NCBI GenBank assembly: GCA_018335585.1
Contig: JAGXRZ010000040.1
Coordinates: 23,906-87,905 of the forward strand
Reading direction: 5' to 3'
Length of the DNA stretch: 64,000 nucleotides
Source of the DNA: Selenomonadales bacterium
GTDB taxonomy: Bacteria; Bacillota; UBA994
Numbering within the stretch: the stretch's first letter is position 1; every line of letters starts with the position of its first letter. Made by a program: the position numbers and the translations under genes. The notes under the pieces were generated by a model that saw only the letters and a program-made list of their open reading frames with translations, was not told where the DNA came from and made no database searches. This document shows positions 12,067 to 42,562 of this stretch, piece by piece.

Positions 12067-12119
12067 GGGCTCTCCGTTTTCCGCCTTCCTCTTTCCTCCT
12101 CCGCTCGGGGCCGTAAGCT

Positions 12120-12182
12120 GTGAGTTGTGAGTTGTGAGTTATGAGTTGCGAGTTGTGAGTTGTGAGTTGTGAGTTGTGAGCC
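12120..12182. repeat. Heptamer tandem-repeat locus B: [GTGAGTT]x9
   Basis: gtgagtt x3, atgagtt, gcgagtt, gtgagtt x3, gtgagcc; preceded by a CT-rich tract; immediately upstream of the fur-family promoter. Confidence 0.9.
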
Positions 12183-12686: not shown

Positions 12687-14822
12687 CTACATCCCCTTCA
12701 TCGACAGGCCGATGCGTTTGCGCTTTAGGTCAACGCTGAGAATCCTTACTTTTACTACATCGCCGACAGATAGGGCCTCGGACGGGTGCTTAATGTACTT
12801 GTCGCTTATCTCCGAGATATGCACTAGGCCGTCCTGCTTAACACCGATGTCTACAAACGCGCCGAAATCTATGACGTTGCGCACTACGCCGCTTAGCACC
12901 ATGCCCTCGGCGAGGTCTTCCATTTGCAGCACGTCGCTGCGAAACACGGGCCCGGCGACATCTTCGCGCGGATCCCTGCCCGGCTTTTTCAGGGCGTGGT
13001 AGATATCCCGCAGCGTGGGGAGACCGGCATTAAGCTCCTCTGCGGCTTTAGCGAGAGCCCCTTCGTTTAGCTGCACTTGTCCGGTGGTGAGCGACTCAAG
13101 GTTCCCTACAAGGCGCAAGAACTTCTCGGCTAGGTCATAGGATTCCGGGTGAACGGGCGTATTGTCCAGTATGTTTTTAGCGGCAGGTATCCTAGTAAAC
13201 CCTGCGCACTGCGTGTATGTGGCCGGGCCTAAGCGCGGCACTTTCCTTAGCTGCTCGCGGGAGGAAAACGCGCCGTGCTCGTCGCGAAACGCCACGATGT
13301 TCTTTGCCACCGTCGGGCTAACTCCCGCTACATAGCGCAAGAGCGCGGGTGAGGCGGTGTTAAGGTCAACGCCTACGCTGTTCACGCAGTCCTCAACTAC
13401 ACCCGTTAGCTTGCCGGCCAGCTGCTTTTGGTCGACATCGTGTTGGTATTGCCCGACCCCAATTGCTTTGGGGTCGATTTTTACTAGTTCGGCCAGCGGG
13501 TCGAGCACGCGGCGGCCGATCGACACCGCGCCGCGGAGGGTAACGTCTAAATCCGGCAGTTCTTGACCGGCTAGCTCGGACGCCGAGTAAACGGATGCCC
13601 CCGCCTCATTCACAATCGTATAGGACACGCGGAGATTATGCTCGCGGATTAGATTGGCGATAAAGTCCTCTGTTTCCCGGCTACCCGTGCCGTTGCCGAT
13701 GGCTATGGCTTGCACCCCATGGGTTTCTATCAGTTGCTTAACTAAGCGCGCGCCCCCGCTCCGGTCGTTTTGGGGCGGGGTAAAGTACGCCACGGCGGTG
13801 GCCAAAACTTTGCCTGTAGTGCCGACCACCGCCATTTTGCAGCCGGTGCGGTAGGCAGGGTCGATGGCGAGAAACGTCTTGCCCTTGACCGGGGCCAGTA
13901 ACAGCAACTGCTTAAGGTTCTGCCCAAACACCTTAATGGCTTGTTCCTCTGCTTGCTCGGTTAGGGTAGCCCTTAGCTCTCGCTCAATAGAGGGCAGCAG
14001 CAACCGCTTGCAGCCGTCGCGAATGGCGTCAACGAGGACCTGGCCAACTCCCGTCTGCGCGCCCATAAACCTTAGCGTCGCAACCTGATACGCCTTCTCC
14101 TCGGGATAGGTGAGCGTTACCTTGAGGACTTCCTCCCGTTCGCCGCGGTTAAGGGCGAGCACGCGGTGGGGCGGGATTTTGCGCACCGGTTCGCTGTAAT
14201 CGTAGTACATTTCGTACACGGATGTCTGCTCAGTGCCGATAGCTTTGGAAGCGATGCTCGCCTCCTGACGCAAGAAAGCGCGCACGGCTTCGCGTACGGC
14301 AAATGTTTCGCTCATGCGTTCGGCTAGGATGTCCTGTGCACCTTCGATGGCCGCCTCGACATCCAAAACGCCTAGTTCGGTGTTGACATAGGTCGAAGCA
14401 ACAGACAGAAGGCCGGCATAATCTAACCCGGGGTTAGCGGCTAGGTAGTCCGCTAAAGGTTCAAGGCCCTTTTCCTTGGCAATCGTCGCCTTGGTGCGCC
14501 GTTTGGGGCGGAAGGGCAGGTATATGTCTTCGACCTGCTGTAGTGTAGTGGCCCCGCGCAGGTTGCTTTCCACTTCAGGCGTGAGTTTGCCCTGCTCGGC
14601 GATAAGCCGCGCTACCTCTGCTTTGCGGGAGGCGAGGTTCTTAAGGTATGTAAGTCGCTCGTCAACTTCGCGCAGTTTAACTTCGTCAAGTTCCCCGGTT
14701 ACCTCCTTGCGGTAGCGGGCGATAAAAGGAATGGTGTTCCCCTCTGCTAGCAGCTTGTCTACGCTTTCTACTTGCTCGCGCTTAAGGCCAAGTTCATGCG
14801 CTATCTTTATGTGCAGATCCAT
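12687..14822 (-). CDS. tex: Transcription accessory protein Tex (S1 RNA-binding, YqgF/RNase H-like and HhH domains)
   Basis: 711 aa; C-terminal S1 domain (GMVLSGVVRNVIDFGAFVDIG), central YqgF and helix-hairpin-helix regions; convergent with the fur-family gene, 6 bp apart. Confidence 0.9.
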   Translation of the reverse strand: MDLHIKIAHELGLKREQVESVDKLLAEGNTIPFIARYRKEVTGELDEVKLREVDERLTYLKNLASRKAEVARLIAEQGKLTPEVESNLRGATTLQQVEDIYLPFRPKRRTKATIAKEKGLEPLADYLAANPGLDYAGLLSVASTYVNTELGVLDVEAAIEGAQDILAERMSETFAVREAVRAFLRQEASIASKAIGTEQTSVYEMYYDYSEPVRKIPPHRVLALNRGEREEVLKVTLTYPEEKAYQVATLRFMGAQTGVGQVLVDAIRDGCKRLLLPSIERELRATLTEQAEEQAIKVFGQNLKQLLLLAPVKGKTFLAIDPAYRTGCKMAVVGTTGKVLATAVAYFTPPQNDRSGGARLVKQLIETHGVQAIAIGNGTGSRETEDFIANLIREHNLRVSYTIVNEAGASVYSASELAGQELPDLDVTLRGAVSIGRRVLDPLAELVKIDPKAIGVGQYQHDVDQKQLAGKLTGVVEDCVNSVGVDLNTASPALLRYVAGVSPTVAKNIVAFRDEHGAFSSREQLRKVPRLGPATYTQCAGFTRIPAAKNILDNTPVHPESYDLAEKFLRLVGNLESLTTGQVQLNEGALAKAAEELNAGLPTLRDIYHALKKPGRDPREDVAGPVFRSDVLQMEDLAEGMVLSGVVRNVIDFGAFVDIGVKQDGLVHISEISDKYIKHPSEALSVGDVVKVRILSVDLKRKRIGLSMKGM

Positions 14823-14957
14823 AAACTACCTCCACAACAAAGTCTGCCGCACGGGCGCGGCACAGCCTATTATACCGGATTTTTGACACTTAGTCCGACT
14901 GAATAAACGGAGCCTTATATCCGTCCTGCCCAAATTTTAATGCACAGAGGCGGCCGC

Positions 14958-14986
14958 TTGACACGGGTAGGGCGCAATGCTATAGT
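14958..14986 (+). promoter_or_regulatory. Consensus-like sigma-A promoter TTGACA-17-TATAGT
   Basis: ttgaca cgggtagggcgcaatgc tatagt; drives a short leader that ends at an intrinsic terminator. Confidence 0.6.
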
Positions 14987-14992
14987 CGAGGC

Positions 14993-15146
14993 GAAAAGAA
15001 TAGTGGTCACGAGCTAAAGTGTGTCTAGGGTTCCGTAGCCTAAAGCTAGCCTGGACCGAGCGACACTAGCGCGTTGCGCTACACCGAAGGGATAAAAGCC
15101 CGGGCGGGGATGTTTTCTCGTAAACATCCCCGCCCGTTTTCTTTTT
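14993..15146 (+). ncRNA. Candidate structured leader / cis-regulatory RNA (~150 nt) upstream of the pur operon; class unassigned
   Basis: Bounded by the promoter above and a strong terminator (gggcggggatgttt...aaacatccccgccc + GTTTTCTTTTT at 15102-15146). Internal helices GUGUC..GACAC and UAGCGC-GUU-GCGCUA. Loop CUCGU is complementary to upstream ACGAG, suggesting a terminator/antiterminator switch. Confidence 0.35.
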
Positions 15147-15147
15147 C

Positions 15148-15528
15148 GCCAGCCGCCAGCCGCCAGCCGCCAGCCGCCAGCCGCCAGCCGCCAGCCGCCA
15201 GCCGCCAGCCGCCAGCCGCTGGCCGGCAGCGGAGCAGTGACGGGGTGGAAAGGTGGAAAGGTGGAAAAGTTAAAGGGGTAAGGGCTGTGAGCTGTGAGCT
15301 GTGAGGATAGGCTTTAGGCGTTAGGCGCTAGGGGAACGGGCTGTGAGCTTAAGCATTGAGCTGTGCACGAAGAGGAAGCGGATACCGCGGCGACGCGCTC
15401 TACTGGGCACTGAGCACTGGGCACTTCCCTACCAGGAGTCAGGAGCCAGCAGCTAGGAGCCCCTCGTCCTTCACGGAGCACGAAGCACGCTCCCTACTAG
15501 GATCCAGTAGCCAGTAGCCAGCCGCCCT
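15148..15528. repeat. Heptamer tandem-repeat locus C (~380 bp mosaic array)
   Basis: Blocks [GCCAGCC]x10, [GGTGGAAA]x3, [GTGAGCT]x3, [TAGGCNN]x3, [CTGGGCA/CTGAGCA]x3, [CAGGAGN]x4, [AGCACGN]x3, [CCAGTAG]x2; fills the whole interval between the leader terminator and the purB RBS. Confidence 0.9.
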
Positions 15529-15546
15529 ACAAAGGAGGAAGAACGA

Positions 15547-16839
15547 GTGATTGACCGCTACACCTCTCCCGCCATGTCTCGCCTGTGGGGCGCGGAGAAA
15601 AAGTTCGCGAAGTGGCTCGAAATTGAGATTCTCGCCTGCGAAGCGTGGAGTAAACTCGGCGTAATACCCGCTAGCGACGTCGACCTAATTCGCGCGCAGG
15701 CGAAGTTTAGCGTCGCACGCATCGACGAGCTAGAGCGCGAGACAAATCACGACGTCGTAGCCTTTACGCGTTGTGTCAGCGAATCGCTGGGGCCGGAAAA
15801 AAAGTGGGTGCACTACGGCCTTACCTCTACCGACGTTGTCGACACGGCGCTCTCTAGCCTTATCGTCGAGGCGCTAGACTTAGTAGCCGAAAAGCTCGGT
15901 TCCCTCCGCGATATCTGCGCCGCACAGGCGCGCCGCCATAAGTACACCCTCATCATGGGACGCACGCATGGCGTACATGCCGAGCCCACCACCTTTGGGC
16001 TAAAGCTTGCCGTATGGTACGCAGAAATCGAGCGTCATCTAGAGCGCCTTGCCGCCGCCCGCACGACTATGGCCGTTGGCAAGCTCTCGGGCGCTGTCGG
16101 CACGTACGCCAATATTGAGCCCTTTGTTGAGGAGTACGTTTGCACCCGTTTGGGCCTAACTCCGGCCAAAGCCGCCACTCAGACGCTACAGCGCGACCGC
16201 CACGCCTTCTTGTTATCTACTTTAGCCCTTGTCGGCTGTTCGCTTGAGAAGTTCGCCACCGAGATACGCGCCCTGCAAAAGACCGAGACGCGCGAAGTAG
16301 AGGAACCCTTTACCGCCGGGCAGAAGGGAAGCTCCGCCATGCCGCATAAACGTAATCCCATCATGTCTGAGCGCATCGTGGGCTTGTCGCGGGTTTTGCG
16401 CGGCTATGCGCTTACCGCCATGGAAAACGTAGCGCTCTGGCACGAACGCGACATCTCGCATTCCTCGGCGGAGCGCATTATTATCCCCGACGCCTTCCAC
16501 CTCCTCTACTACATGCTCGGTGTGCAGTGCCGCATCCTAGACGGACTTAACGTCTACCCCGAGCAGATGCGCGCGAACATGGAGCGCTCCTACGACCTTA
16601 CTTATTCACAGCAGGTTTTGCTTAAGCTGATTGAGTCCGGTCTGTCGCGCGAGGCCGCGTATGACCTTGTGCAGCGCCTCGCCATGCAGGCGTGGCGGGA
16701 AGGCTCTAGCTTTAAGACATTAGTCTTTGGCGAGCCCGAGATTACGGCACGCTTAGATGCGCCTACGCTCCTGCACTTGTTTGATATCTCCGCCCATACC
16801 AAGCACGTCGACACCATTTTTGCCCGCCTAGGGTTGTAG
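15547..16839 (+). CDS. purB: Adenylosuccinate lyase PurB
   Basis: 430 aa fumarase/aspartase fold with [11 protein letters not shown] signature; AAAGGAGGA RBS before GTG 15547. Confidence 0.9.
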
Positions 16840-16868
16840 ACAAGGGGATTGTAGACGAGGAGGTTAAC

Positions 16869-17588
16869 ATGGAAAAGCGAAAGTTGCTCTACTCCGGCAA
16901 AGCCAAAGAAGTATATGCCACCGACGACCCAGACTTGTGCGTAGTCTACTTTAGGGATTCGGCCACGGCGTTTAACGCGCAAAAGAAGGGCGAAATCGCG
17001 GGCAAAGGCGAGCTCAACAACCTAATTTCGGCCCATTTCTTCCGGCTACTTGAGGCTCACGGCGTAAAGACGCACTTCCTGAGCGTTTTAACGCCACGCG
17101 AAATGCTAGTGCGTCGCCTCGAAATCATTAAGGTAGAGGTGGTAGTGCGCAACGTCGCCGCCGGGTCGCTTAGCCAGCGGCTGGGGCTGCCGGAAGGAAC
17201 GCAGTTAGCGCAGCCGGTGCTCGAATACTACTACAAGGACGACGCGCTCGGCGACCCGCTGGTAAACGACTATCACATTCAGGCGCTAGGGTGGGCCTCG
17301 CGCGACGAGATGAATGAGATTGCGGCTACGGCGCTTCGCATCAACGACATCCTCCTGCCAGCGCTTAAGGCCAGCGGCGTCCTCTTGGTAGACTTTAAGC
17401 TTGAATTCGGGCGTTTCGCCGGACAAGTCCTCCTCGGTGACGAAATTTCCCCCGACACTTGTCGCTTTTGGGACGCCACTACCCAGGAAAAACTAGATAA
17501 GGACAGATTCCGCCGCGACTTAGGCGGCGTCGCGGAAGCTTACCAAGAGATTTATCGGCGACTTAAAGGAGGCAAGGCAGATGTATAA
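16869..17588 (+). CDS. purC: SAICAR synthetase PurC
   Basis: 239 aa, [16 protein letters not shown]... typical PurC N-terminus; GAGGAGG RBS. Confidence 0.9.
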
Positions 17589-17832
17589 AGCAAAAATCTA
17601 CGTTACGCTGCGGCAAGGTATCCTCGACCCAGCCGGACAAGCCGTGCGAAAGGGCTTACACAGTCAAGGCTTTGGCTGTGTGCTGGACGTACGCATGGGC
17701 AAGTTTATGGAACTGACGCTAGAGGCAGGAAGTGAACGCGAGGCAAGTAGCCTAGTGCGCGAGACTTGCGAGCGGCTACTGGTTAATCCGGTTATGGAGG
17801 ACTACAACTTTACCCTTGAGGCTTTAGCATGA
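17581..17832 (+). CDS. purS: FGAM synthase PurS subunit
   Basis: 83-aa protein; position between purC and purQ, overlapping both. Confidence 0.85.
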
Positions 17833-18530
17833 GGTTTGGCATAGTCGTCTTCCCCGGCTCAAACTGCGACCTCGACTGCTATCATGCCGCCAAAGAGGTC
17901 TTAGGACAACCCACGGACTACGTCTGGCATGAAAGTAGCGACGTTTCCGACTATGACTGCATTGTCTTGCCGGGCGGCTTTTCCTACGGCGACTATTTGC
18001 GCGCCGGCGCTATCGCCCGCTTCTCGCCCGTGATGCAGGCGGTAGCCGAGGCGGCGGAGCGCGGCAAACTTGTGCTTGGTATCTGTAACGGCTTTCAGAT
18101 TCTATTAGAAGCCGGCCTGCTGCCCGGTGCCATGCGTAGAAACGACCACCTGCAGTTTCGCTGTGAAACGCGCTATGTACGTCTGGAAAACAACCGCACC
18201 CCCTTTACTCATCTAGGTGAGGCGGGGCAAGTGCTTAGCTTGCCTATCGCGCATGCCGAAGGCAACTACTATATTGGGAGCGACGAGCTTTTGGAACTTA
18301 AGCGGCACAGCCAAATTGTGCTGCGCTATTGCGACCAAGCGGGCAACATTACGCCCGCCGCCAACCCAAACGGCGCACTCGAGAATATTGCCGGGATTGT
18401 CAACAAGCGCGGCAACGTCTTTGGCTTAATGCCGCACCCTGAGCGCGCCTGCGAAGCTATAACCGGCGGCACCGATGGAAAACTTGTCTGGGATTCAATC
18501 TTTAGGTGGTGGGAGGAGCGACATGCTTAA
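17829..18530 (+). CDS. purQ: FGAM synthase glutamine amidotransferase subunit PurQ
   Basis: 233 aa class I GATase with Cys (GICNGFQ) and His (HPE) catalytic residues. Confidence 0.9.
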
Positions 18531-20754
18531 GACTTACCTTAGTCTGCAGGACGAAAACGCCGCGCGCAGCATGGGGCTTAAGCCGCGTGAGTGGGAGCTT
18601 GTGCTTAAGCACCTCAGCCGTACGCCTAACCTCACGGAGCTTGGCATGTTTGCCGTCATGTGGAGCGAGCACTGCAGCTACAAACACAGCAAGCTCGCCC
18701 TGCGCCAGTTTCCCACCACCGGCCCGCGCGTCCTGGTGGGGCCGGGAGAAAACGCTGGCGTAGTAGACATTGGCGACGGCCAAGCGGTAGTGTTTAAAAT
18801 CGAGAGCCATAACCACCCCTCCGCCATCGAGCCCTACCAAGGCGCGGCTACAGGCGTAGGCGGTATAGTGCGGGACGTCTTCGCCATGGGGGCGAGGCCA
18901 ATCGCGCTCCTTAACAGCTTGCGCTTTGGGGAGCTTAGCTCGCCGCATCAGCGCTACTTGTTCGCCAGCGTAGTAGCAGGCATTGCGGGCTACGGCAACT
19001 GCTTAGGCATTCCCACTGTCGGCGGCGAGGTCTACTTTAACCAAAGCTACACCGGCAACTGCCTGGTTAATGCCATGTGCGTGGGTACCATTGCGCACGA
19101 CAAACTCGCGCGCGGCAAGGCGGCCGGTCTTGGCAACCGCGTGCTGCTAGTCGGCGCGCTTACCGGACGCGACGGCATTCATGGGGCTACCTTTGCCTCA
19201 GAGGAGCTGTCCGAGCGCTCGAACGAGAAGCGGCCGATGGTGCAGGTAGGCGACCCCTTTATGGAAAAGCTGCTTATTGAGGCTTGCCTGGAGCTTATCG
19301 ACAAGAAAGCTATCGTCGGCATGCAAGACCTTGGCGCGGCGGGCCTGACTTCCGCCAGCAGCGAGATGGCGGCGCGGGCCGGTACGGGTGTAGACATTGA
19401 CGTGTCTCGCGTGCCGCGCCGCGAAACCGGCATGAACCCCTATGAAGTCATGCTTTCCGAATCACAGGAGCGCATGTTGCTCGTAGTCGAACCTGAGCGC
19501 GTGAGCGGGGTCTTAGAAATTTGCCGACACTGGGGACTAGCAGCCACCGACATTGGCGAGGTAACCGACACAGGCCTCGTGCGTGTGTTTGACGGCAGCG
19601 AATTAGTGGCCGAGGTGCCGGCTAAAGCTCTAGCCTCTTTAGGGCCGATATATAACCCGGCGGCGACCGAGCCGCCATGGCAAAGAGATGCGCAAACACT
19701 TGACCTAGACTCTCTGCCGTTGCCAAGCGACTACGGGCAGGTGCTAAAGTCTCTACTGGCGTCACCTAACATCGCCAGCAAAGAGTGGGTTTATCGGCAG
19801 TACGACCATATGGTGCGGGGAGACACGGTAGTATTGCCCGGCTCGGACGCGGCAGTGCTCCGCATTAAGGGGACTAAGAAGGGCCTAGCCATGACGGTCG
19901 ACTGCAACAGCCGCTACGTCTATCTAGACCCGTATCGCGGCGGGGCTATCGCGGTAGCCGAGGCTGCCCGCAACCTAGCGGTGAGCGGTGCGGAGCCCTT
20001 AGCGGTCACTAACTGCCTTAACTTTGGCAACCCAGAGCGGCCGGAGATTTTCTACCAGTTTACACAGGCCATCGCCGGCATGGCGGCAGCGTGTCAGGCA
20101 CTAGGCACGCCGGTTACCGGCGGCAACGTCAGCCTCTACAACGAAACAAGCGGTAAAGCCGTTTATCCCACGCCGACGGTAGGCATGGTCGGGCTGCTGT
20201 CGGATATTAGCTCGCGCGTGACGCTCTCCTTTAAGCAAGCGGGCGATGTCGTGCTCCTCCTCGGCACAACCGAGGAAGAGCTTGGGGGGAGCGAGTACCT
20301 AAAGGTTATGCACGACCGCGAGTGCGGCTCGCCGCCGGCACTCGACTTCGCGCGTGAGCGCGCGCTGCAAGGGCTCTTGCTGGCCGCGGCTTCGGCTAAG
20401 CTCTTGTCTTCGGCCCACGACTGTGCGGAAGGCGGCTTAGCAGTGGCCTTGTGCGAGTCAGCCTTCCCGCTCGGGTTAGGCGCGGAAGTCACTATCCCCA
20501 ATGAGCGCGGCCTGCGCCTAGACGCACTGCTGTTCGGAGAGTCGCAGTCGCGAGTCGTTGTAACAACGAAAGCCGACTCCCTGCCCGCGCTCGCGGCGTT
20601 ATGCAGCGAGTATGGCGTCCCCTGCACCGAATTAGGACGAGTGAACCGCGGTTCGCTGGTCATTCGCGTAGAGGAGAGCACCCTGATTGACCTGCCCGTA
20701 GCAGATTTAGCGCAAAGTTGGAGGGACGCTATCCCATGCCTTATGTCGCAGTAG
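18523..20754 (+). CDS. purL: FGAM synthase large subunit PurL
   Basis: ~743 aa AIR-synthase-related duplication typical of small-type PurL; GGGAGGAG RBS before ATG 18523 (ORF opens at 18475). Confidence 0.9.
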
Positions 20755-22184
20755 ACGGTAAGCTCAGGGAAGAGTGCGGTGTGCTCGGCCTCTATGGGCA
20801 TGGTCTAGACGTGGCCCGGTTAGGATACTTTGGCCTGTTCGCCCTACAGCACCGCGGGCAGGAAAGCGCCGGCCTCGCGGTGATAAACGGCAAAGAAATT
20901 AAGACCCACCGAGGACTTGGCTTAGTGGCGGATGTCTTCACAGAAGACGATGTCGCCGCTTTGGGGGATGTAGGGGCACATATGGCCGTCGGCCATGTGC
21001 GTTACTCCACCGCAGGGGGCGGCGGCTTAGCTAACAGCCAGCCGCTAGTAGCCAGTCACCTGCGCGGACACATTGCGCTTGCACACAACGGCAACCTCGT
21101 TAACAATGACCAACTGCGCGAGGAGCTTGAGGGTCAGGGAGCCATATTTCACACCACCAGCGACACGGAAGTTATTCTTAGCCTAATGGCGCGCTACCGC
21201 CAAAGCGGCAACGAAAACGCGCTGCTGCAATCACTCACCCATGTACAGGGGGCTTATAGCCTAGTGCTCGGCACGGAGACGGAGCTGATTGGCGTGCGCG
21301 ACCCGCATGGCTTTCGTCCCTTGGCCTTAGGACGGTTAGGGCCGGCGGGCTATGTACTGGCTTCGGAGAGTGCCGCGATTGACGCCATAGGCGGCGAGTT
21401 TGTGCGCGATATTCGCCCCGGCGAAATCGTGGTTATCGACCAAAGTGGCGTGCGCTTCCGCCGCTTTAGCGACAGCGCTGTTTCGGCCTGCATCTTTGAG
21501 TACATTTACTTCGCCCGAAACGACAGCACTATCGACGGCCTAAACGTCTATCGCGCGCGAGAAGCTTTAGGGCTCTGCCTAAGCCAGGAACATCCGGTAG
21601 CGGCCGATGTCGTAATCCCCGTGCCCGACTCCGGCACTCCGGCAGCACTAGGCTATGCCAGAGGGGCAAACCTTCCTTTCGCGGAAGGCTTGGTGAAAAA
21701 CCGCTATGTCGGACGCACGTTTATTGAGCCGGGGCAGGCGTTGCGTGAGCTTAAAGTTAGGCTCAAACTTACGGCCAACACCGAAGTAATTGCCGGTAAG
21801 CGCGTAATCATGGTCGACGATTCCATTGTGCGCGGCACCACCACGCAAATCCTAGTAAAGATGCTGCGGCAAGCCGGGGCCAGTGAAGTACATGTGCGCA
21901 TAAGCTGTCCGCCTTACTTGAGCCCCTGCTACTTTGGTATAGACACACCCTCTAGCGCCGAGCTCGTGGCGGCGCGCTGTAACGTCGACGAAATGTGTGC
22001 GTTGCTCGGTGCCGACAGCCTTGGGTTCTTAAGCCTCGCGGGGACGCTCTCCGCCCTGGCGACCAGAGAGACGCCCGCTTGCGTCAGTTGTTTTACCGGG
22101 GTCTATCCCATGCCCATTTTGAAAGTAAAGCAGGGGGCGCCAAAGCCAGACCAAAGAGAGGAGTGGGGTGACGTGCGTGGGTAA
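20736..22184 (+). CDS. purF: Amidophosphoribosyltransferase PurF (with N-terminal propeptide)
   Basis: [10 protein letters not shown] Ntn-hydrolase catalytic Cys after a ~13-aa propeptide; PRT domain downstream; GGAGGGA RBS before ATG 20736. Confidence 0.9.
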
Positions 22185-23223
22185 GGAAGTAGGGGGCAGG
22201 GGAGCGGGTCTCACGTACCGCGACGCAGGCGTAGATGTCGCAGCCGGTCATCAAGCGGTTGACCTTATGCGGGCGCACGTGCGCTCTACCTTTCGCCGCG
22301 AGGTGCTGGGGGATATCGGCGGTTTCGGCGGGCTGTTTGCCTTAGGCAAGTACGAGGAGCCGGTCTTAGTGTCCGGCACGGACGGCGTCGGCAGCAAGCT
22401 TAAGGTAGCCTTTATGCTTGGGCGTCACAACACAGTCGGCATCGACCTCGTAGCCATGTCGGCCAACGACATCTTGGTCTCAGGTGCAGAGCCGCTGTTT
22501 TTCCTCGACTACATCGGCATTGCCCGCTTAGACCCCATTTTGGTGGCCGAGATTGTGGCCGGCGTTGCCGCAGGCTGCCAAGCCGCGGGGTGCGCGCTTA
22601 TAGGCGGCGAAACAGCCGAACTGCCAGACCTCTACAGCGCGGGCGAGTACGACCTAGCCGGGTTTGCCGTAGGTGTAGCGGAGAAAAAGCGTCTTATCGA
22701 CGGTAAAACAATTAGCTGTGGCGATATGCTGCTTGGGCTTGCGTCTAGCGGACTGCATAGCAACGGCTATTCGCTGGCGCGCAAACTAGTATTCGAAGTC
22801 GGCGGGTTTACCTGTGCCGATGTGCCGCCGGCACTAGGCGTAGCAGTCGGGGAAGAACTGCTCCGTCCGACGCGCATCTATGTGCGACCCGTACTGCCGC
22901 TAGTACGGCTAGGCTTAGTTAAAGGCATGGCCCACATTACAGGCGGCGGGTTTATCGACAATATTCCGCGCATGCTCCCCGCCGGTCTTGGCGTGGAAGT
23001 AACGCGCGGGAGCTGGCCTGTTTTGCCCGTTTTTGGCTGGCTCCAAGAACTTGGTCAGGTAGCCGAGAGCGAAATGTACCGCACGTTTAATATGGGAATT
23101 GGCTTTGTGCTCTTTGTGGCCGCAACAGACGTAGCCGCAGTACGCGAGCGGCTTGCAGGCTTTGGCGAAGAAAGCTATGTCATAGGGAAAGTAATCGCGG
23201 GTGAGGGGGTTTCGCTTGTCTGA
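22168..23223 (+). CDS. purM: AIR synthetase PurM
   Basis: 351 aa; YRDAGVDV N-terminal motif and PurM fold. Confidence 0.9.
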
Positions 23224-23224
23224 T

Positions 23225-23920
23225 GTGACACAACACTTCCCCAAGCGACAAGCGACAAGCGACAAGCGACATACGCCAAGCGACAAGCGACATCCCCCCC
23301 CCTTACGCCTTGCCGTCCTAGTCTCAGGCGGCGGAACTACTTTGCAGGGGCTAATAGACGCCATAGCGGCAGGCTCGCTCGGCGCGGAAATCGCCTTGGT
23401 CGTCAGTTCGCGGCGCGATGCTTTCGCCCTTGAGCGCGCGCGCCGCTCCGACATTCCTACCTGCGTACTTAGCAGGCGCGCTTTCACAACGCCCGAGCAA
23501 CACGATGCGGCCCTCGCCGGGCTACTGCAGCAACACCAAGTTGACCTCGTCGTCTTAGCGGGCTACTTGCTGCCCATAGGCCAAGCGACGCTAAGTGCGT
23601 TCCCGGGGCGGATTATAAACATTCATCCCAGTCTCCTGCCCGCCTTTGGCGGACGGGGATATTACGGGTCACGCGTACATACCGAAGTTCTGGAGCACGG
23701 CTGTAAGATTACCGGGGCTACCGTGCACTTTGTGGAGGCCGAGCTCGACACAGGACCCATAATTTTGCAGGGAGCCGTAGAAATAGAGGACGACGACACG
23801 AGCGAGTCGCTCGCAGCTAAGGTAGGAGAACTCGAGCGCGAGCTGTACCCAAGAGCCATTCAACTTTTTGCCGACGGCAAGCTCCGGCAAGTCGGGCGCA
23901 GGGTAACGATTCTAAAGTGA
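23225..23920 (+). CDS. purN: GAR formyltransferase PurN, with repeat-encoded N-terminal extension
   Basis: Conserved PurN core starts at LRLAVLVSGGG (~23303) and contains the HPSLLP motif. The only in-frame starts (GTG 23201, TTG 23216, GTG 23225) lie upstream of the heptamer array. ~26 extra residues (TQHFPKRQATSDKRHTPSDKRHPPP) are therefore translated from the CAAGCGA repeats and a C9 tract. Confidence 0.8.
   Translation: MTQHFPKRQATSDKRHTPSDKRHPPPLRLAVLVSGGGTTLQGLIDAIAAGSLGAEIALVVSSRRDAFALERARRSDIPTCVLSRRAFTTPEQHDAALAGLLQQHQVDLVVLAGYLLPIGQATLSAFPGRIINIHPSLLPAFGGRGYYGSRVHTEVLEHGCKITGATVHFVEAELDTGPIILQGAVEIEDDDTSESLAAKVGELERELYPRAIQLFADGKLRQVGRRVTILK
23242..23302. repeat. Heptamer tandem-repeat locus D: [CAAGCGA]x4, catacgc, [CAAGCGA]x2, then cat+C9, inside the purN 5' coding region
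   Basis: Copy number taken from the ORF-track translation (KRQATSDKRHTPSDKRHPPP), which requires four plus two units followed by nine C. Confidence 0.8.
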
Positions 23921-23929
23921 GGTGGAAGT

Positions 23930-25468
23930 ATGCAGCCTAGACGTGCACTGCTAAGTGTCTGGGATAAGACAGATTTAGTGCCTTTTGCGCGTGGTCTTAT
24001 GGACTTAGGATTTACCATCCTTTCTACCGGCAAGACGGCGGAGCATTTGCGGCAAGCGGGCGTTCTGGTAACCGACGTCGAGCAGGTGACAGGCTTCCCG
24101 TCCATGATGAGTGGGCGAGTCAAGACTTTGCACCCCAGTATTCACGGCGGAATTCTGCTCCGCCGCGACCACGCCGAAGATGTCGCGCAGGCGGCGAGCC
24201 TCGGCATTCTTCCCATCGACTTAGTTTGCGTTAACCTCTACCCCTTTCAGGCGACGATTAGGCGACAGCATACATTAGAAGACGCTATCGAGAATATCGA
24301 CATCGGCGGGCCGACGCTTATTCGCGCCGCGGCTAAGAACCAGGCCTTCGTGACTACAGTGACTAATCCCAGGCAGTATGCAAATGTGCTTACCGAGCTT
24401 TGCGAACAAGGAGAAGTTAGCCCGGCATTACGCTCCACACTCGCTGCCGAGGCCTTCTTTCACACTGCCCATTACGATAGCACCATCAGCCTGTACTTCC
24501 ACCGCGCTTTCGAGCTGCCGAACTTCCCGCGGGAAATGGCGTTGCCGATGGAGCTGGCTCAAGAGCTTCGCTACGGCGAAAATCCCCACCAAAAAGGGGC
24601 CTACTATCGCCATCCCGGCGCAGGCGAAGGTTTGGCCGGTATGCGCCAACTACAGGGAAAAGAGCTTTCGTACTGCAACATTAACGACGTCAGCGCGGCG
24701 CTCGCAGTCTTAGGCGAGCTTGACCAACCGGCAGCTGTGGCCATTAAGCACGCTAATCCTTGCGGCGTAGCCGTAAGCCACTCGGCCGCCACCGCCTATG
24801 CCAAAGCCTACGCTGCGGATACAGTCTCTATCTTTGGCGGCATTGTCGCGCTAAACCGCGAAGTGGACTTAACTACTGCCGCGCTCCTTGGCGAGACATT
24901 TCTGGAGGTAGTCGTAGCACCTAAGTTTTCGTGCGAAGCGCGCGAGCACCTCGGCAAACGCAGGAACTTAAGGCTACTCGAAGTAAGTTTAAAGCAAGAA
25001 AAATCACGACTACCCGCGTGGGATGTGCGGCGCGTAGAGGGCGGGTATCTCGTGCAGACGCCCGACGCCACAGGGCCTAAGCGCAACTGGCGCGTCGTCA
25101 CTTCCGCCATGCCTACCGACAGTCAACTTGACGACCTCAAGCTAGCTTGGCAGGTAGTGCGGCACGTAAGCTCGAATGCGATTGTGTTGGTTAAAAATGG
25201 GGCTACGGTAGGTATAGGTGGGGGCCAAACCAACCGCATAGACGCCGCCACGCAGGCCATACAGCGCGCGGGCGAGCAGGCGCGCGGTGCGGTACTCGCC
25301 TCGGATGCCTTTTTCCCCATGCCGGATGTGTTAGAGCAGTGCGCTCTAGCAGGTGTTGCGGCCGTAATTCAGCCAGGCGGCTCCATTAGGGACAGCGATT
25401 CGCTTGCTGTAGCCGAGCGCGTAGGTATATGCATGATCTATACTGGGGAGAGACATTTTCGTCATTAA
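23930..25468 (+). CDS. purH: Bifunctional AICAR transformylase / IMP cyclohydrolase PurH
   Basis: 512 aa, N-terminal MGS-like IMPCH domain and C-terminal AICARFT domain; RBS GAGGTGGAAG. Confidence 0.9.
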   Translation: MQPRRALLSVWDKTDLVPFARGLMDLGFTILSTGKTAEHLRQAGVLVTDVEQVTGFPSMMSGRVKTLHPSIHGGILLRRDHAEDVAQAASLGILPIDLVCVNLYPFQATIRRQHTLEDAIENIDIGGPTLIRAAAKNQAFVTTVTNPRQYANVLTELCEQGEVSPALRSTLAAEAFFHTAHYDSTISLYFHRAFELPNFPREMALPMELAQELRYGENPHQKGAYYRHPGAGEGLAGMRQLQGKELSYCNINDVSAALAVLGELDQPAAVAIKHANPCGVAVSHSAATAYAKAYAADTVSIFGGIVALNREVDLTTAALLGETFLEVVVAPKFSCEAREHLGKRRNLRLLEVSLKQEKSRLPAWDVRRVEGGYLVQTPDATGPKRNWRVVTSAMPTDSQLDDLKLAWQVVRHVSSNAIVLVKNGATVGIGGGQTNRIDAATQAIQRAGEQARGAVLASDAFFPMPDVLEQCALAGVAAVIQPGGSIRDSDSLAVAERVGICMIYTGERHFRH

Positions 25469-25485
25469 CCGAGGGAGGGCTCTGT

Positions 25486-26733
25486 GTGCGGGTTTTACTT
25501 TTGGGGAACGGTGCGCGTGAACACGCCTTGGCCTGGAAGATAGCCGAAAGTCCTTTGCTTTCCGCGCTTTACACGGCGCCGGGGAACCCAGGCACGGCAC
25601 TTTTCGGCGAAAACATCGCCTGCGACATTTGCGACCCGGCCGCAGTTACCGCGCTGGTGCGGCAGTTAGAAGTAGACTTATTAGTCGTCGGAGGCGAAGC
25701 CCCGTTAGCGGCCGGCGTTGCCGATGCCGTCAGGCAAGGCTACCCCGCTTGTGTAGTGTTTGGCCCGGGTAAGCTCGGTGCCGAGCTCGAGTGGAGCAAA
25801 GCCTACGCTAAAGCCTTTATGCGGCGATACCACTTGCCGACGGCAGATTACCGCTGCTTTGCTAACGCCGCCAAAGCGCGTAAGTTTCTGGCCACAGCGC
25901 CGCTGCCCATCGTGGTAAAAGCAGACGGTTTGGCGCAAGGCAAGGGCGTAGTGATTGCTAAGACGCGCGAAGAAGCGCTAGCCGCGCCGGATGCCTTGCC
26001 GGCGGGAGGAAAAGTCATTGTCGAGGAATATCTCGTAGGGCGCGAGGCTTCGGTGTTTGTGCTTACCGACGGGCAGCGCTTTCACGTGCTGCCGCCCACA
26101 GAAGACCACAAACAGCTCGGCGACGGCGATACGGGCCCGAATACAGGCGGCATGGGGGCTTACGCTCCGGTGAGTTATTGGAATGAAGAGTTGCAGGCAG
26201 AGGTTGAAGAAATTGTTATGCAGATCATAGTAGGCCTCTGCGCTGAGGACAGGGACTATCGCGGCGTGATTTTCCTTGGGTTAATGATAACAGCCACCGG
26301 CATTAAGCTCCTGGAGTTTAACGCGCGTTTTGGCGACCCCGAGTGCCAAGTGCTGATGGCTAAGCTTGCTGACGACGTGTTGCCTTACTTGTACCAAGCG
26401 GCAAGCGGGAAATTACCACTTAGCCCTCCACAGTGGAGTCACGAGTACGTAGCCCTGGTGGTGGCCTGCGGGGCGGAGTACCCGGCGGCCCCGTCGCGCG
26501 GCGTGCCGATTACGGGCATCAGAGCGGCGGAGGCCTCAGGTTGTCTGATATTTCACGCCGGTACAGCGCGCGCGGGCGAGACGCTTGTCACCAACGGCGG
26601 ACGCATTCTTAATGTCGTGGGACGCGGCGAGACCCTAGCGTCCGCCCTCGCTAAAGCCTACAATGGAATTGGCGCGATTAGTTTTCCCGGCATGCACTAT
26701 CGGCGAGATATTGGCAGACGAAAGGAAGCGTGA
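25486..26733 (+). CDS. purD: Phosphoribosylamine--glycine ligase PurD
   Basis: ATP-grasp enzyme with VRVLLLGNGAREHALAWK N-terminus; GAGGGAGGG RBS 6 nt before GTG 25486 (ORF opens at 25429 inside purH). Confidence 0.9.
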   Translation: MRVLLLGNGAREHALAWKIAESPLLSALYTAPGNPGTALFGENIACDICDPAAVTALVRQLEVDLLVVGGEAPLAAGVADAVRQGYPACVVFGPGKLGAELEWSKAYAKAFMRRYHLPTADYRCFANAAKARKFLATAPLPIVVKADGLAQGKGVVIAKTREEALAAPDALPAGGKVIVEEYLVGREASVFVLTDGQRFHVLPPTEDHKQLGDGDTGPNTGGMGAYAPVSYWNEELQAEVEEIVMQIIVGLCAEDRDYRGVIFLGLMITATGIKLLEFNARFGDPECQVLMAKLADDVLPYLYQAASGKLPLSPPQWSHEYVALVVACGAEYPAAPSRGVPITGIRAAEASGCLIFHAGTARAGETLVTNGGRILNVVGRGETLASALAKAYNGIGAISFPGMHYRRDIGRRKEA

Positions 26734-26737
26734 GTAC

Positions 26738-27229
26738 ATGCAAACGCTAGTTGCCGTGATTATGGGCAGTACCTCAGACTGGCCGATTATGCAGGAAGCT
26801 TGCCGCATTTTGCGCGAGCTAGAGGTACCTTACTTAGCTAAAGTCGTCTCTGCCCACCGCACGCCGGAACTGATGGCCGATTTTGGCCGCGCGGCTGTCG
26901 CGCAGGGACTCCGCGTGATTATTGCCGGAGCGGGCGGCGCCGCACACTTGCCGGGCATGGTAGCAAGCCACACAGTGTTGCCCGTTATCGGGGTGCCTAT
27001 CCCGACCGAGCATTTGCGCGGGCTAGACTCGCTGCTCTCGATTGTACAAATGCCGGCCGGAGTCACCGTAGCCACGGTAGCCGTAGGCACAGCCGGGGCG
27101 AAAAATGCGGCGCTCTTGGCCTGCCAGATACTAGCCCTTTCGGACACGCACCTTCGTGATAAGCTCACGGCGCGGCGAGCGACGGCGCGCGAACAAGTCA
27201 TGGCGACAGAGCTGGAGCTCCTGCCATGA
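26738..27229 (+). CDS. purE: N5-CAIR mutase PurE
   Basis: MQTLVAVIMGSTSDW..., AGGAAHLPG motif; AAAGGAAG RBS before ATG 26738 (ORF opens at 26663 inside purD). Confidence 0.9.
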   Translation: MQTLVAVIMGSTSDWPIMQEACRILRELEVPYLAKVVSAHRTPELMADFGRAAVAQGLRVIIAGAGGAAHLPGMVASHTVLPVIGVPIPTEHLRGLDSLLSIVQMPAGVTVATVAVGTAGAKNAALLACQILALSDTHLRDKLTARRATAREQVMATELELLP

Positions 27230-28359
27230 CTAAACCAAACTCGTCCGCCGCTCTGCGCACAATCCTACCCGGGGGAACCATCGGTATCCTTGGCGGCGGT
27301 CAACTGGGGCGTATGACGGCCATGGCCGCTAAGCAAATGGGTTACCGGGTGGTCTGTTTAGACCCGCAGCCAAACTCCCCCTGCGGGCAGGTCTGTGACG
27401 CCCAGATTCAAGGGTCGTTTGACGATTACACCGCGGCGCGCGCACTGGCGAAGCAGTCCGACGTCTGTGTGTATGAATTTGAGAATATCAATGCTGATGT
27501 AGTGGCAGAGCTAGAGCGAGAGTTTAACGTGCCGCAGGGAAGTTTCCTGTTGCGCGTGACGCAAAACCGCATCAGCGAGAAAGCGCACCTCCGAGAACAG
27601 GGCTTCCCCGTGGTGCCTTATCGCGTGGTTGACGGCCGCGCGGAATTAGCGGCGGCGGCAGAGGAGTTAAAGTACCCGGTCGTGCTTAAGTCTGCTACCG
27701 GCGGCTACGACGGCAAGGGCCAAGCGGTGCTTAGGTCGCCGGCTGACTTAGGAAACGTTACTATCAGCGGCCTCCAGGTGCTAGAAAAGTTCTTGACGTT
27801 AACGGGTGAGGTTTCTGTCGTCGTGGCGCGACGTAGAGATGGTGAAACCGCAGCCTTTCCGGTTGGGGAGAATGTGCATCGCCACAATATCTTACATACT
27901 ACCGTCGTTCCTGCCCGTTTAAGCCAAGCATTGCAGGCCCAAGCCACCGAACTGGCCATAGGCATTGCCGAGTCGCTCGGTGTAGTTGGGCTCCTGGCAG
28001 TAGAGATGTTTCTTACGCCGGAAGGCATTATCGTAAACGAGCTCGCGCCGCGCCCCCATAACTCCGGCCACTACACCCTCGGCGCCTGCGAGACCTCGCA
28101 GTTTGAGCAGTTTGTGCGTGCGGTGTGTAACCTGCCGCTAGGCCCTACAACTCTCCTCTACCCCGCGGTGATGGTCAACATCTTAGGCGAGCATATGGCT
28201 GGTCTTATGACCCAGTTCGCTACACTCCCCCCAAACGTCAAAGTCCACCTTTACGGCAAAAGCGGTACACCTGTCCCGCGACGCAAGATGGGGCATCTGT
28301 TGATTAGGACTGACACTCCAGACCAGACAACCGCTTGGGCGGAAGAGGTGTTAGTCTAA
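27226..28359 (+). CDS. purK: N5-CAIR synthetase PurK
   Basis: 377 aa ATP-grasp protein; overlaps purE stop. Confidence 0.9.
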   Translation: MTKPNSSAALRTILPGGTIGILGGGQLGRMTAMAAKQMGYRVVCLDPQPNSPCGQVCDAQIQGSFDDYTAARALAKQSDVCVYEFENINADVVAELEREFNVPQGSFLLRVTQNRISEKAHLREQGFPVVPYRVVDGRAELAAAAEELKYPVVLKSATGGYDGKGQAVLRSPADLGNVTISGLQVLEKFLTLTGEVSVVVARRRDGETAAFPVGENVHRHNILHTTVVPARLSQALQAQATELAIGIAESLGVVGLLAVEMFLTPEGIIVNELAPRPHNSGHYTLGACETSQFEQFVRAVCNLPLGPTTLLYPAVMVNILGEHMAGLMTQFATLPPNVKVHLYGKSGTPVPRRKMGHLLIRTDTPDQTTAWAEEVLV

Positions 28360-28370
28360 AACACAAAACT

Positions 28371-28399
28371 TTGACATAGGTAAAAAAGAGCAGTATAAT
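28371..28399 (+). promoter_or_regulatory. Consensus sigma-A promoter TTGACA-17-TATAAT driving fic
   Basis: ttgaca taggtaaaaaagagcag tataat, 25 nt upstream of the fic start, immediately after the purK stop. Confidence 0.65.

Positions 28400-38187: not shown

Positions 38188-42562
<4,375 letters not shown>

Follow-up and report, generated by a model that had tools for sequence, protein, structure and literature searches.

The closest described systems

Two PRPP riboswitches of ykkC subtype 2b provide the nearest points of comparison for the leader described below: the Heliobacterium modesticaldum singlet that lies 5' of purB and has been confirmed both in vitro and in vivo (Sherlock et al. 2018, eLife 7:e33908; PMC5912903), and the aptamer of Thermoanaerobacter mathranii, for which a crystal structure, 6CK5, is available (Knappenberger et al. 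2018, eLife 7:e36381; PMC6031431). In PRPP aptamers, G6 touches the beta-phosphate of the ligand and metal M2, and G96, conserved in >97% of PRPP switches, forms a pair with C75 and is in contact with the ribose of PRPP. The ppGpp aptamers of subtype 2a have A, C, U or nothing at position 96, where a G competes with the ligand guanine for C75, and the substitution G96A produces a 40,000-fold switch in specificity. Two features separate these subtypes from guanidine-I riboswitches: position 49, a pyrimidine in subtype 2 versus an adenosine in guanidine-I, which serves as a sorting marker, and P0, a helix formed from conserved 5' and 3' tails and stacked on P3, which is found in subtypes 2a/2b (PMC6031431).

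The leader lies ahead of a 12-gene purine operon in a window of 64 kb, the whole stretch of DNA (64,000 nucleotides) that was analyzed, and all features given below are on its forward (+) strand. We propose, with a probability of roughly 0.87, that it is a PRPP riboswitch of known class, namely a singlet of ykkC subtype 2b functioning as a transcriptional ON switch for the operon. The host belongs to an uncultured lineage with a genome of ~1 Mb, which we take to be candidate division NPL-UPA2(-like), from serpentinite-hosted springs. To our knowledge, no regulation has been described in the NPL-UPA2 lineage, and the leader offers a concrete candidate regulator for its entire de novo purine pathway. 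This member leaves the established picture of the PRPP class unchanged and is ordinary in kind apart from one unusual ligand-contact base.

Like the H. modesticaldum switch, the leader combines a subtype 2b aptamer, present as a singlet without a guanine aptamer, with purB as the first gene, and in both cases the 5' arm of the terminator begins in the loop or 3' strand of P3 and continues via the linker into the 3' strand of P0, a layout in which the ligand leads to read-through. The two differ in P2, which is long there and a minimal 5-bp hairpin here, in the linker (UAGG there, GAUG here), in P0, which here carries a U.U mismatch and a bulge, and in the distance to the start codon, short there and 400 nt here; furthermore, the H. 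modesticaldum switch has been validated, whereas the present leader is a candidate assigned from its sequence. None of 34 published seed sequences, the Heliobacterium construct included, is more than 72% identical to the aptamer of the leader. The T. mathranii aptamer is co-linear with the leader block by block, so the numbering of the crystal, which was mapped onto the leader and is used throughout, transfers directly; A5, G6, G48, C49, A74-C78, G96, A103 and G105 are identical, and the four-way junction P0/P1/P2/P3 is common to both. In contrast to the leader, the T. mathranii aptamer occupies the second place in a tandem guanine-PRPP gate and has a continuous 8-bp P0 instead of an interrupted one, a G rather than a U at position 104, and U79-A98 in lower P3 where we find G79-C98, a compensatory difference.

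Architecture and conservation of the leader

Promoter, structured leader and intrinsic terminator form one unit, at positions 14958-15146. The sigma-70-type promoter (14958-14986) has 11/12 consensus matches, with a -35 box TTGACA at 14958-14963, a 17-nt spacer, a TG at 14978-79 and a -10 box TATAGT at 14981-14986, and it is the sole promoter-like site in 14600-15800 (1 observed vs 0.4 in shuffles). Transcription would start at ~14993-14994, about 7 nt 3' of TATAGT, leaving only about 15 nt between the inferred start and P0; 115 nt separate the -10 box from the terminator stem. On the other side, the switch is separated from the purB start by a 5'-UTR spacer of 400 nt (15147-15546), 57% of which is made of 7-8-nt tandem arrays, an array of 12 CGCCAGC copies beginning at 15147, directly 3' of the U-run. 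A consensus scan, which a weak internal promoter may escape, detected no promoter-like site in the spacer, and a GGAGG ribosome-binding site (15534-38) is found 8 nt 5' of the GTG start of purB. Judging by its length and content, which differ among relatives, the spacer is outside the switch proper. The (CGCCAGC)n array was considered as a conserved Rho-loading site or a second site of regulation and rejected, given 12 copies here, 4 in a 98% relative and none in the others. The regulated operon, purB-C-S-Q-L-F-M-N-H-D-E-K, extends from 15547 to 28359, all 12 of its genes being NCBIfam equivalog matches above the curated cutoff, and the next transcription unit has a perfect TTGACA-17-TATAAT promoter at 28371-28399.

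The aptamer, including an extended P0, spans 15009-15121 and is matched over its full length by covariance models, with a model-matched core at 15014-15123. The 5' strand of P0 (15009-15018) is composed of the extension ACGAG (15009-13), a bulged C15014, U15015 and the core AAA (15016-18), in which A15018 corresponds to A5; this strand is invariant in the clade and in the outgroup L176, while the flanking leader diverges. The equivalent of G6 follows at 15019, a position occupied by G in 34/34 published seeds. P1 (GUGUC 15021-25 / GACAC 15062-66) encloses the CUAGGGUU junction, P1a (CC 15033-34 / GG 15053-54), P1b (UAGC 15036-39 / GCUA 15045-48, giving the hairpin UAGC-CUAAA-GCUA) and the ACCGAGC strand (15055-61), in which G48 is 15060 and C49 is 15061. 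P2, supported by the alignment to model R1 (see below) and by a pairing check, is the hairpin AGCGC-GUU-GCGCU at 15068-15080. It is followed by the junction A74-C75-A76 (15081-15083), conserved in 34/34 seeds, where C15082 stands for C75, the partner of G96. The P3 domain (15084-15107) contains lower P3 (CCG 15084-86 / CGG 15105-07), P3 (GGG 15089-91 / CCC 15099-101, with the loop AUAAAAG) and the S-turn G95-G96-G97 at 15102-15104, G15103 being G96. A single-stranded P3-P0 linker, GGAUG (15108-15112, positions 101-105), which has U15111 at position 104, leads to the 3' strand of P0 (15113-15121), made of UUU (15113-15), U15116 and CUCGU (15117-21). The extended P0 hence comprises the AAA/UUU core plus the pairing of ACGAG with CUCGU. 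According to the pairing check, all aptamer helices are composed of standard pairs; mismatches stand at the first pair of P0 (U15015.U15116, in the place of G2-C109) and at the first pair of P1 (U15020.U15067). The folding of the leader surpasses that of 200/200 shuffles (z = -4.2).

The intrinsic terminator (15101-15146) consists of a 15-bp stem (15101-15 / 15122-36; strands CGGGCGGGGAUGUUU / AAACAUCCCCGCCCG) with 10 G-C pairs, a 6-nt loop UCUCGU (15116-21) and the U-run UUUUCUUUUU (15137-46). Nucleotides 15101-15121 are common to the aptamer and terminator folds, the 3' strand of P0 occupying the tip of the 5' arm of the terminator and its loop. Since the terminator fold is predicted to be more stable than the aptamer secondary structure (-45.1 vs -25.6 kcal/mol), OFF would be the default state; and because the 5' arm is built of aptamer nucleotides, in a layout like that of the validated Heliobacterium purB switch, we infer a transcriptional ON switch, with PRPP binding and the ON response as predictions. 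Our working model is that the nascent RNA, initiated about 7 nt past TATAGT, adopts the ykkC scaffold (P1/P1a/P1b, P2 and P3) and that abundant PRPP is bound in a pocket made of A5/G6, G48/C49, C75-C78, G96 and the P3-P0 linker. Binding would lock P3 and P0 (AAA/UUU and ACGAG/CUCGU), and with them 15101-15121, from which the terminator takes its 5' arm and loop; terminator formation would be blocked, so that the polymerase would read through the repeat-filled spacer into purB-purK. When PRPP is lacking, the much more stable 15-bp hairpin would form and transcription would stop at the U-run. Two other pairings were rejected. A long-range helix between AAAAGAA (14994-15000) and UUCUUUU (15139-45), present in minimum free energy (MFE) folds, is contradicted by an uncompensated change of G14998-C15141 to G.G in L165, L167, L168, L169 and L170, and its 5' segment is also unconserved in the outgroup L176. 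An MFE alternative pairing the leader at 15003-15015 with the P2 region finds no matching changes in relatives, in which the P2 loop and stem vary.

Most elements of this architecture had been recognized in the original prediction: the near-consensus TTGACA-17-TATAGT promoter, the strong terminator with a U-run and a GC stem, for which its 14 bp were essentially right, and the location ahead of purB, the first gene of a 12-gene pur operon. The GUGUC..GACAC helix proved to be real, being P1, and UAGCGC-GUU-GCGCUA (15067-15081) corresponds to P2; GUGUC..GACAC was thought to close two hairpins, and it does enclose one (P1a/P1b), but P2 adjoins P1 and is not inside it. The antiterminating pairing of ACGAG with CUCGU is likewise real, as the extended P0 of the ligand-bound aptamer, and the broader proposal of a riboswitch or attenuator with terminator-antiterminator alternatives is supported by the subtype 2b match and by the overlapping folds. 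A covariance-model match and conservation in related genomes, on which the proposal had been made to depend, were both found, the latter in 10/10 close relatives and two outgroups, and the extent given to the element, 14958-15146, is precisely the block conserved in the relatives.

The close relatives are 10 sequences with PurB at least 85% identical, found through a protein collection. In them, the conserved block runs from the -35 box to the last U; neither the -35 box nor the TG varies, two forms of the -10 box occur (TATAGT and TAGAGT) and the promoter spacer is variable. The two outgroups, L175 and L176, carry the element ahead of a permease-purB operon, and L176 has TTGACA-17-TATATT at the equivalent place. 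Among the contigs of genome and metagenome collections, the best genome match was MAG HKB212 (88% PurB), which ends 23 nt before purB, the others being at most 63% identical. Taken by itself, the close clade shows no significant covariation (46/500). With the outgroups included, the aptamer fold is 98.3% paired with 3 compensatory pairs (0-1/500) and the terminator fold is 97.3% paired with 3 compensatory pairs relative to L176 (4/500), the compensatory evidence coming mainly from one outgroup sequence. P1 and P1b show compensatory changes relative to the outgroups, and P2 displays strong covariation across the published family (7/7 pairs). Compensatory changes preserve both mutually exclusive folds.

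Proposed assignment to ykkC subtype 2b

At the gathering score, a scan of the whole 64 kb with Rfam 15 reported no family at all, and no separate PRPP match was returned for the leader. RF00442 (Guanidine-I) matches the leader over its full length with 62.0 bits (E=1.6e-10), 1 bit under its gathering threshold of 63 bits. We also used R1, a covariance model for which only published PRPP (subtype 2b) aptamers served as seeds; these 34 sequences obey the crystal/consensus structure (90.7% paired, 22/30 pairs compensatory, 0/500 shuffles). R1 matches 15014-15123 over its full length with 87.3 bits (E~1e-26), its sole significant match in the 64 kb; the weak matches at 23094-23220 (13.8 bits, E 0.04) and 27656-27789 (11.1 bits, E 0.34) were set aside as chance. 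R1 was also run on ~870 kb of other purB loci: the Bacillota part (487 kb) gave no match, and the metagenome part (385 kb) gave one strong match, an independent switch that is itself 5' of a purB. L095, a strong 2b-model match ahead of a purB, reaches 99.9 bits on R1 and 71.7 bits on RF00442; because it thereby exceeds the cutoff of the latter, RF00442 does not separate the ykkC subtypes. Some relatives of the leader also pass this gathering score (66.7 bits). This points to an annotation gap, in which the leader falls 1 bit short of the default Rfam threshold while its relatives and the other 2b-type switch would be called 'Guanidine-I'.

The PRPP/ppGpp ykkC model was among those that the original prediction had listed for a search, and its remark that the leader did not fit the purine consensus was also sound. 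The purine or ZTP-type identity that it had considered was not borne out, as neither RF00167 nor RF01750 gave a match at the gathering score in the 64 kb or at E<=10 in 14800-15600; the class is probably PRPP. The absence of the guanine aptamer RF00167 from 14800-15600, even at E<=10, makes the leader a singlet and not a tandem guanine-PRPP IMPLY gate. The remaining entries of the E<=10 Rfam list (M23, mir-3926, mir-2066 and Collinsella-1) have E >=0.18, coincide with the repeats or with the hairpin of the terminator and were attributed to chance. An 8-oxoguanine class as a ykkC subtype was dismissed, since the literature places it as a guanine-riboswitch variant.

The ykkC scaffold is complete, with P1, P1a, P1b, P2, lower P3 and P3, and its junctions and loops have the conserved sequences CUAGGGUUCC, GACCGAGCG, ACACC and GGGAUAAAAGCCC. 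Among the key structure-defined positions, 13/14 agree with the 2b family consensus, including A5, G6, G48, C49, C75, C77, C78, G96, A103 and G105. Position 49 is C15061, a pyrimidine as in subtype 2, and position 96 is G15103, with C15082 as C75. The other ligand-contact bases (A5, G6, G48, C77, C78, the purine at 101, A103, G104 and G105) match in 8/9 cases, the exception being 104. Furthermore, a purB-first pur operon downstream is the gene association that defines subtype 2b.

Several other readings deserve to be weighed against these observations. That RF00442 is the only Rfam match, and that relatives pass its gathering score, would be expected of a guanidine-I riboswitch, but we attribute this match to the overall ykkC scaffold and the many tertiary-contact nucleotides common to both; the leader itself scores below the threshold, a criterion that in any case does not discriminate subtypes, as L095 illustrates. 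The ligand would differ from guanidine because the leader has C and not A at position 49 (ACACCGAAGGG not ACACGGAGGG), possesses P0 and conserved tails, which guanidine-I lacks, and precedes pur genes, with no guanidine carboxylase or exporter genes downstream, which makes a guanidine switch exceedingly improbable. A ppGpp riboswitch of subtype 2a, coupling purine synthesis to the stringent response, is a closer rival given that the 2a and 2b consensus are nearly identical, may differ by one nucleotide and have P0, the pyrimidine at 49, C75 and an NAGG-type linker in common. Nevertheless, we consider it very unlikely: G15103 occupies position 96, where 2a has A, C, U or none, and 2a members are found ahead of genes for branched-chain amino acids, glutamate synthase or natA rather than ahead of pur genes. 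Moreover, ppGpp turning purine synthesis ON would be contrary to the physiology of the stringent response. The preference for 2b over 2a is based on G96 and the gene context, and not on competing models. The subtypes 2c (ADP/CDP) and 2d (orphan) were rejected on the grounds that they call for NUDIX/HAD hydrolase genes and EamA/phn_DUF6/TauE transporter genes, respectively, whereas pur genes are found here with a pocket of the 2b consensus; both were set apart by their described gene associations and more prominent pocket changes, and not by a nucleotide-level consensus. Lastly, promoter-leader-terminator units are common in many attenuation systems, and the leader might be imagined as an attenuator that depends on a protein or a tRNA (PurR-type, T-box or RNA-binding protein) or as a chance structure; we give such an origin almost no weight in view of the full-length match to a ligand-binding aptamer (E~1e-26) with intact pocket nucleotides, of the conservation boundaries and covariation, which agree with the riboswitch fold, and of the lack of a T-box or any other Rfam family at E<=10.

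Position 104 and its terminator partner

The one departure from the ligand-contact consensus is U15111, which replaces G104, a base that is hydrogen-bonded through its N1 to the ribose 2-hydroxyl of PRPP (PMC6031431). Position 104 is G in 33/34 seeds, and a U was found in none of 257 published rows (no AUGUUU[C/U]); 4 rows have A, hence G104 is highly conserved and not absolute. U104 is fixed in all 6 distinct sequences of the clade, and the outgroups L175 and L176 keep G. The base paired with position 104 in the terminator has changed from C to A, compensating G104->U.

As read from these alignments, the affinity or specificity for PRPP could differ in the present leader. The rival explanation built on this substitution is that a 2b-derived aptamer has changed its specificity or affinity in favour of a PRPP-related or other phosphorylated metabolite, or of another range of PRPP. 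U15111 displaces a direct ligand contact, its absence from the 257 published members and its fixation in the clade set it apart, the linker in the sister 2a class (NAGG / NARG) tunes the preference for ppGpp versus pppGpp, and the ykkC fold is able to switch ligands via single substitutions. Against this, no other contact departs from the canonical base, nor does the discriminator G96, and the operon holds exactly the genes that a PRPP switch would be expected to control. Variation at 104 (G->A) is already seen in a few published members, and drift at a position doubly constrained by the terminator, whose partner went from C to A, also explains the U. We therefore judge a shifted specificity to be distinctly unlikely and retain the PRPP switch as the preferred reading. 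There is a slim chance, slightly greater, that G104->U marks a functional retuning, whether to another ligand, which would add a specificity to the 'rugged' ykkC scaffold, or to a markedly shifted PRPP response range. PRPP is chemically unstable in hyperalkaline serpentinite springs, and a shifted PRPP range could be an adaptation to such springs.

U104 represents a natural single-site variant at a ligand contact, in a scaffold that switches ligand by single mutations. If the retuning were true, the C->A substitution that accompanies it in the terminator would reveal how a nucleotide common to aptamer and expression platform evolves. G104->U and the terminator change together illustrate compensatory evolution at a nucleotide of two mutually exclusive structures.

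Identity of the leader ahead of the pur operon

The leader upstream of purB is most probably (we would put it at about 0.87, judging from sequence) a singlet PRPP riboswitch of ykkC subtype 2b, which would act as a transcriptional ON switch for purBCSQLFMNHDEK. The original prediction of a riboswitch or attenuator is supported and is sharpened to this subtype by the match to an independent 2b model and by the pocket nucleotides, whereas its purine or ZTP option falls away, neither Rfam model appearing even at E ≤ 10. No Rfam family reached its gathering threshold across the whole 64-kb window. A permissive search of the leader region gave one real match, to the full length of RF00442 (ykkC / Guanidine-I) at 15014-15108 (62.0 bits, E = 1.6e-10). 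The element departs from the guanidine consensus in carrying GAGCG for GAGAG and ACACCGAAGGG for ACACGGAGGG, departures that coincide with sites where subtype 2 is described as diverging. Subtype 2b RNAs bind PRPP, and 257 examples are known in Firmicutes 5' of de novo purine genes; they are ON switches with P3 as the antiterminator, and a singlet ahead of Heliobacterium modesticaldum purB was validated in vitro and in vivo (PMC5912903, Sherlock et al.). Published work already covers the class, its ligand, structure and ON logic, and includes a singlet at purB; the window element is a fairly divergent new 2b example in a poorly studied lineage.

The independent model, R1, was built from 34 diverse sequences, none of this lineage, which were degapped from the published 2b Stockholm alignment (PMC5912903) and realigned, with the published and crystal structure (P0, P1, P1a, P1b, P2, lower P3 and P3) written onto the alignment columns. 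On these seeds, 90.7% of cells were paired and 22 of 30 pairs had compensatory changes, and none of 500 shuffles reached either value. R1 matched the window at full length at 15014-15123 with 87.3 bits (E ~1e-26), the next scores within the window being 13.8 and 11.1 bits, and the aptamer is 55-72% identical to the seeds. Other Bacillota purB loci (487 kb) contained no match, and 385 kb of metagenomic purB loci yielded a single element (L095, 99.9 bits), itself 5' of a different purB.

Rfam 15 gave the window element no PRPP match of its own; the element lies one bit below the Guanidine-I gathering cutoff of 63 bits and would go unannotated. Switches above this threshold occur in relatives (66.7 bits; L165 1019-1114, L167/L168 1192-1287, L166 1060-1154), in the outgroup locus L175 (2876-2970) and in L095 (1220-1335, 71.7 bits). 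All those listed here lie ahead of pur genes and match R1 strongly, and such 2b-type switches would be labelled 'Guanidine-I riboswitch'. The RF00442 model does not separate ykkC subtypes, and the finding is of practical use in annotation.

Ligand pocket and competing subtypes

The Thermoanaerobacter mathranii row of the published alignment, which gives the crystal numbering of Knappenberger et al. (G6, G48, C75-C77, G95-G97; PMC6031431), aligns co-linearly with the window in three blocks. The contacts to PRPP are made by A5, G6, G48, C49, C77, C78, G96, A101, G104 and G105, with A103 stacking under G105 (PMC6031431). The window has A15018 at position 5, G15019 at 6, G15060 at 48, C15061 at 49, C15082 at 75, C15084 at 77, C15085 at 78, G15103 at 96, G15108 at 101, A15110 at 103, U15111 at 104 and G15112 at 105, and 13 of 14 key positions agree with the consensus of the 34 seeds. 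Position 96, which pairs with C75, is G in >97% of PRPP switches, whereas ppGpp switches have A, C, U or no nucleotide there, and G96A changes specificity 40,000-fold (PMC6031431). A ppGpp switch (2a) is thus countered by G96, and a guanidine-I switch by C49 (A in guanidine-I) and the presence of P0. For subtypes 2c and 2d, neither the NUDIX/HAD hydrolase or EamA/phn_DUF6 transporter genes nor their more prominent pocket changes apply. The Rfam purine model (E ≤ 10) detected no guanine aptamer 5' of the switch, as only ~15 nt lie between the inferred start and P0, and the PRPP switch therefore stands as a singlet.

U15111 makes the linker GGAUG, against NAGG in the family; position 104 is G in 33 of the 34 seeds, and the 257 published rows include 170 with AGGUUUC, 4 with AAGUUUC and none with AUGUUU[C/U]. 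The U is fixed in all six distinct clade sequences and is G in both outgroups. Its terminator partner has changed as well (U-A in the clade, G-C in the outgroup locus L176), and the differences at G95 and G97 are likewise matched by their terminator partners. Most simply, the substitution is read as tolerated at a site under two constraints. In the sister ppGpp class the same linker tunes ligand preference; that U104 retunes affinity or ligand here seems improbable.

Alternative folds and proposed mechanism

The promoter, terminator and structured leader that had been predicted were all recovered. TTGACA (14958-14963) is followed after 17 nt by TATAGT (14981-14986) with a TG before the -10, giving 11 of 12 matches, and consensus scans of 14600-15800 found this single promoter-like site and one strong plus-strand terminator, a 15-bp stem with 10 G-C pairs (15101-15136), after which UUUUCUUUUU runs to 15146. 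None of 200 dinucleotide shuffles folds as well as the 157-nt leader (z = -4.2). The GUGUC/GACAC, UAGCGC-GUU-GCGCUA and ACGAG/CUCGU complementarities were likewise found in the sequence, the last, proposed as an alternative pairing, being the P0 extension.

The P0 core pairs AAA 15016-15018 with UUU 15113-15115 and is extended by ACGAG 15009-15013 with CUCGU 15117-15121, past a U.U mismatch and a bulged C. P1 (15021-15025/15062-15066), P1a (15033-15034/15053-15054), P1b (15036-15039/15045-15048), P2 (15068-15072/15076-15080), lower P3 (15084-15086/15105-15107) and P3 (15089-15091/15099-15101) complete the aptamer. The terminator 5' arm (15101-15115) is made of the last P3 nucleotide, the G95-G97 S-turn, the lower-P3 3' strand, the ligand-contacting linker and the P0 3' strand, and the terminator loop contains the P0 extension, so that the two folds are mutually exclusive. 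Since the terminator fold is more stable than the bare aptamer secondary structure (-45.1 versus -25.6 kcal/mol), termination would be the default. The terminator 3' arm is made only after P3 and lower P3 have formed; PRPP binding would lock P0 and P3, and the locked helices would block the terminator and permit read-through into the pur genes. The layout is that of the validated H. modesticaldum purB switch, and we infer an ON switch, with PRPP binding and read-through both predicted here.

Outside the aptamer, the ~16 nt at the start of the inferred transcript (14993-15008, GAAAAGAAUAGUGGUC) scarcely vary within the close clade and are not conserved in L176. Half of the relatives break the pairing predicted between AAAAGAA and the terminator U-run, and short evolutionary distance alone may explain the clade-level conservation.

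Relatives, operon and neighbouring sequences

Scans of genomes and metagenome contigs gave no usable close relative. A large protein collection contained PurB homologues 98-85% identical, some of them under the name 'candidate division NPL-UPA2 bacterium', a lineage of alkaline, serpentinite-hosted springs. The element is present, on the purB strand, in the contigs of all ten relatives (R1, 87-90 bits), and in their alignment the conserved block runs from the -35 hexamer to the U-run, with flanks diverging immediately. The aptamer is nearly constant in the clade, changes falling in loops, at family-variable sites or as G.U pairs, and within-clade covariation is not significant (46/500 shuffles). 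The same switch is present in two outgroups, whose PurB is 77% and 74% identical. With them included, pairing is 98.3% in the aptamer (0-1/500 shuffles) and 97.3% in the terminator (4/500), each with three pairs changed on both sides, compensatory counts that rest largely on one outgroup sequence, the shuffle counts not being probabilities.

In both outgroups a xanthine/uracil permease gene lies between the switch and purB (L175 3084-4397, L176 3096-4394), as it does in L171-L174; in these next-closest lineages (PurB 74-77% identical) purine base uptake would also be switch-controlled. The window's clade either lost this gene or never had one, and has a repeat-filled spacer in its place. That spacer (15147-15546), 400 nt from U-run to purB, is 57% tandem arrays of 7-8-nt units, with 12 copies of CGCCAGC against 4 in a 98%-identical relative and 3 of GGTGGAAA against 5.2; among relatives it spans 97-400 nt, in some without repeats and in some with different arrays. 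A consensus scan found no promoter-like site within the 400 nt, and GGAGG lies 8 nt ahead of the purB GTG start. The arrays are outside the switch proper, yet would be transcribed when it is ON.

The operon, purB-C-S-Q-L-F-M-N-H-D-E-K (15547-28359), lies 3' of the leader, and all 12 genes match their own NCBIfam equivalog above the curated cutoff. A perfect promoter (TTGACA-17-TATAAT, 12/12) at 28371-28399, 12 nt past the purK stop, starts the next unit, ahead of a Fic-family adenylyltransferase gene and dapF, and so delimits the pur transcription unit at its 3' end, although the interval from purK to this promoter showed no terminator-like site. A (CAAGCGA)x7 array (23242-23292) lies within the operon just past the stop codon of purM (23223). 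As called mechanically, the purN ORF begins at 23201, yet it matches its family only from residue 36 onward; the true start probably lies close to 23306, and the array would then fall in a purM-purN intergenic spacer. Further arrays of differing 7-nt and some 8-nt units occur at 2880-2990, 12119-12180, 40387-40564 and 61252-61525, mostly intergenic among the sites checked, and look like hypervariable simple-sequence repeats in a lineage with ~1-Mb genomes. The divergent gene 5' of the leader (12687-14822, minus strand) encodes a Tex-type protein of 711 aa, as judged from S1 domain matches (NCBIfam) and from Tex_N, Tex_YqgF, HHH and S1 Pfam matches on the identical-length product of the locus L161. 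Its adjacency to the pur leader is retained in the closest relative only; other relatives have different upstream genes and an unchanged riboswitch block.
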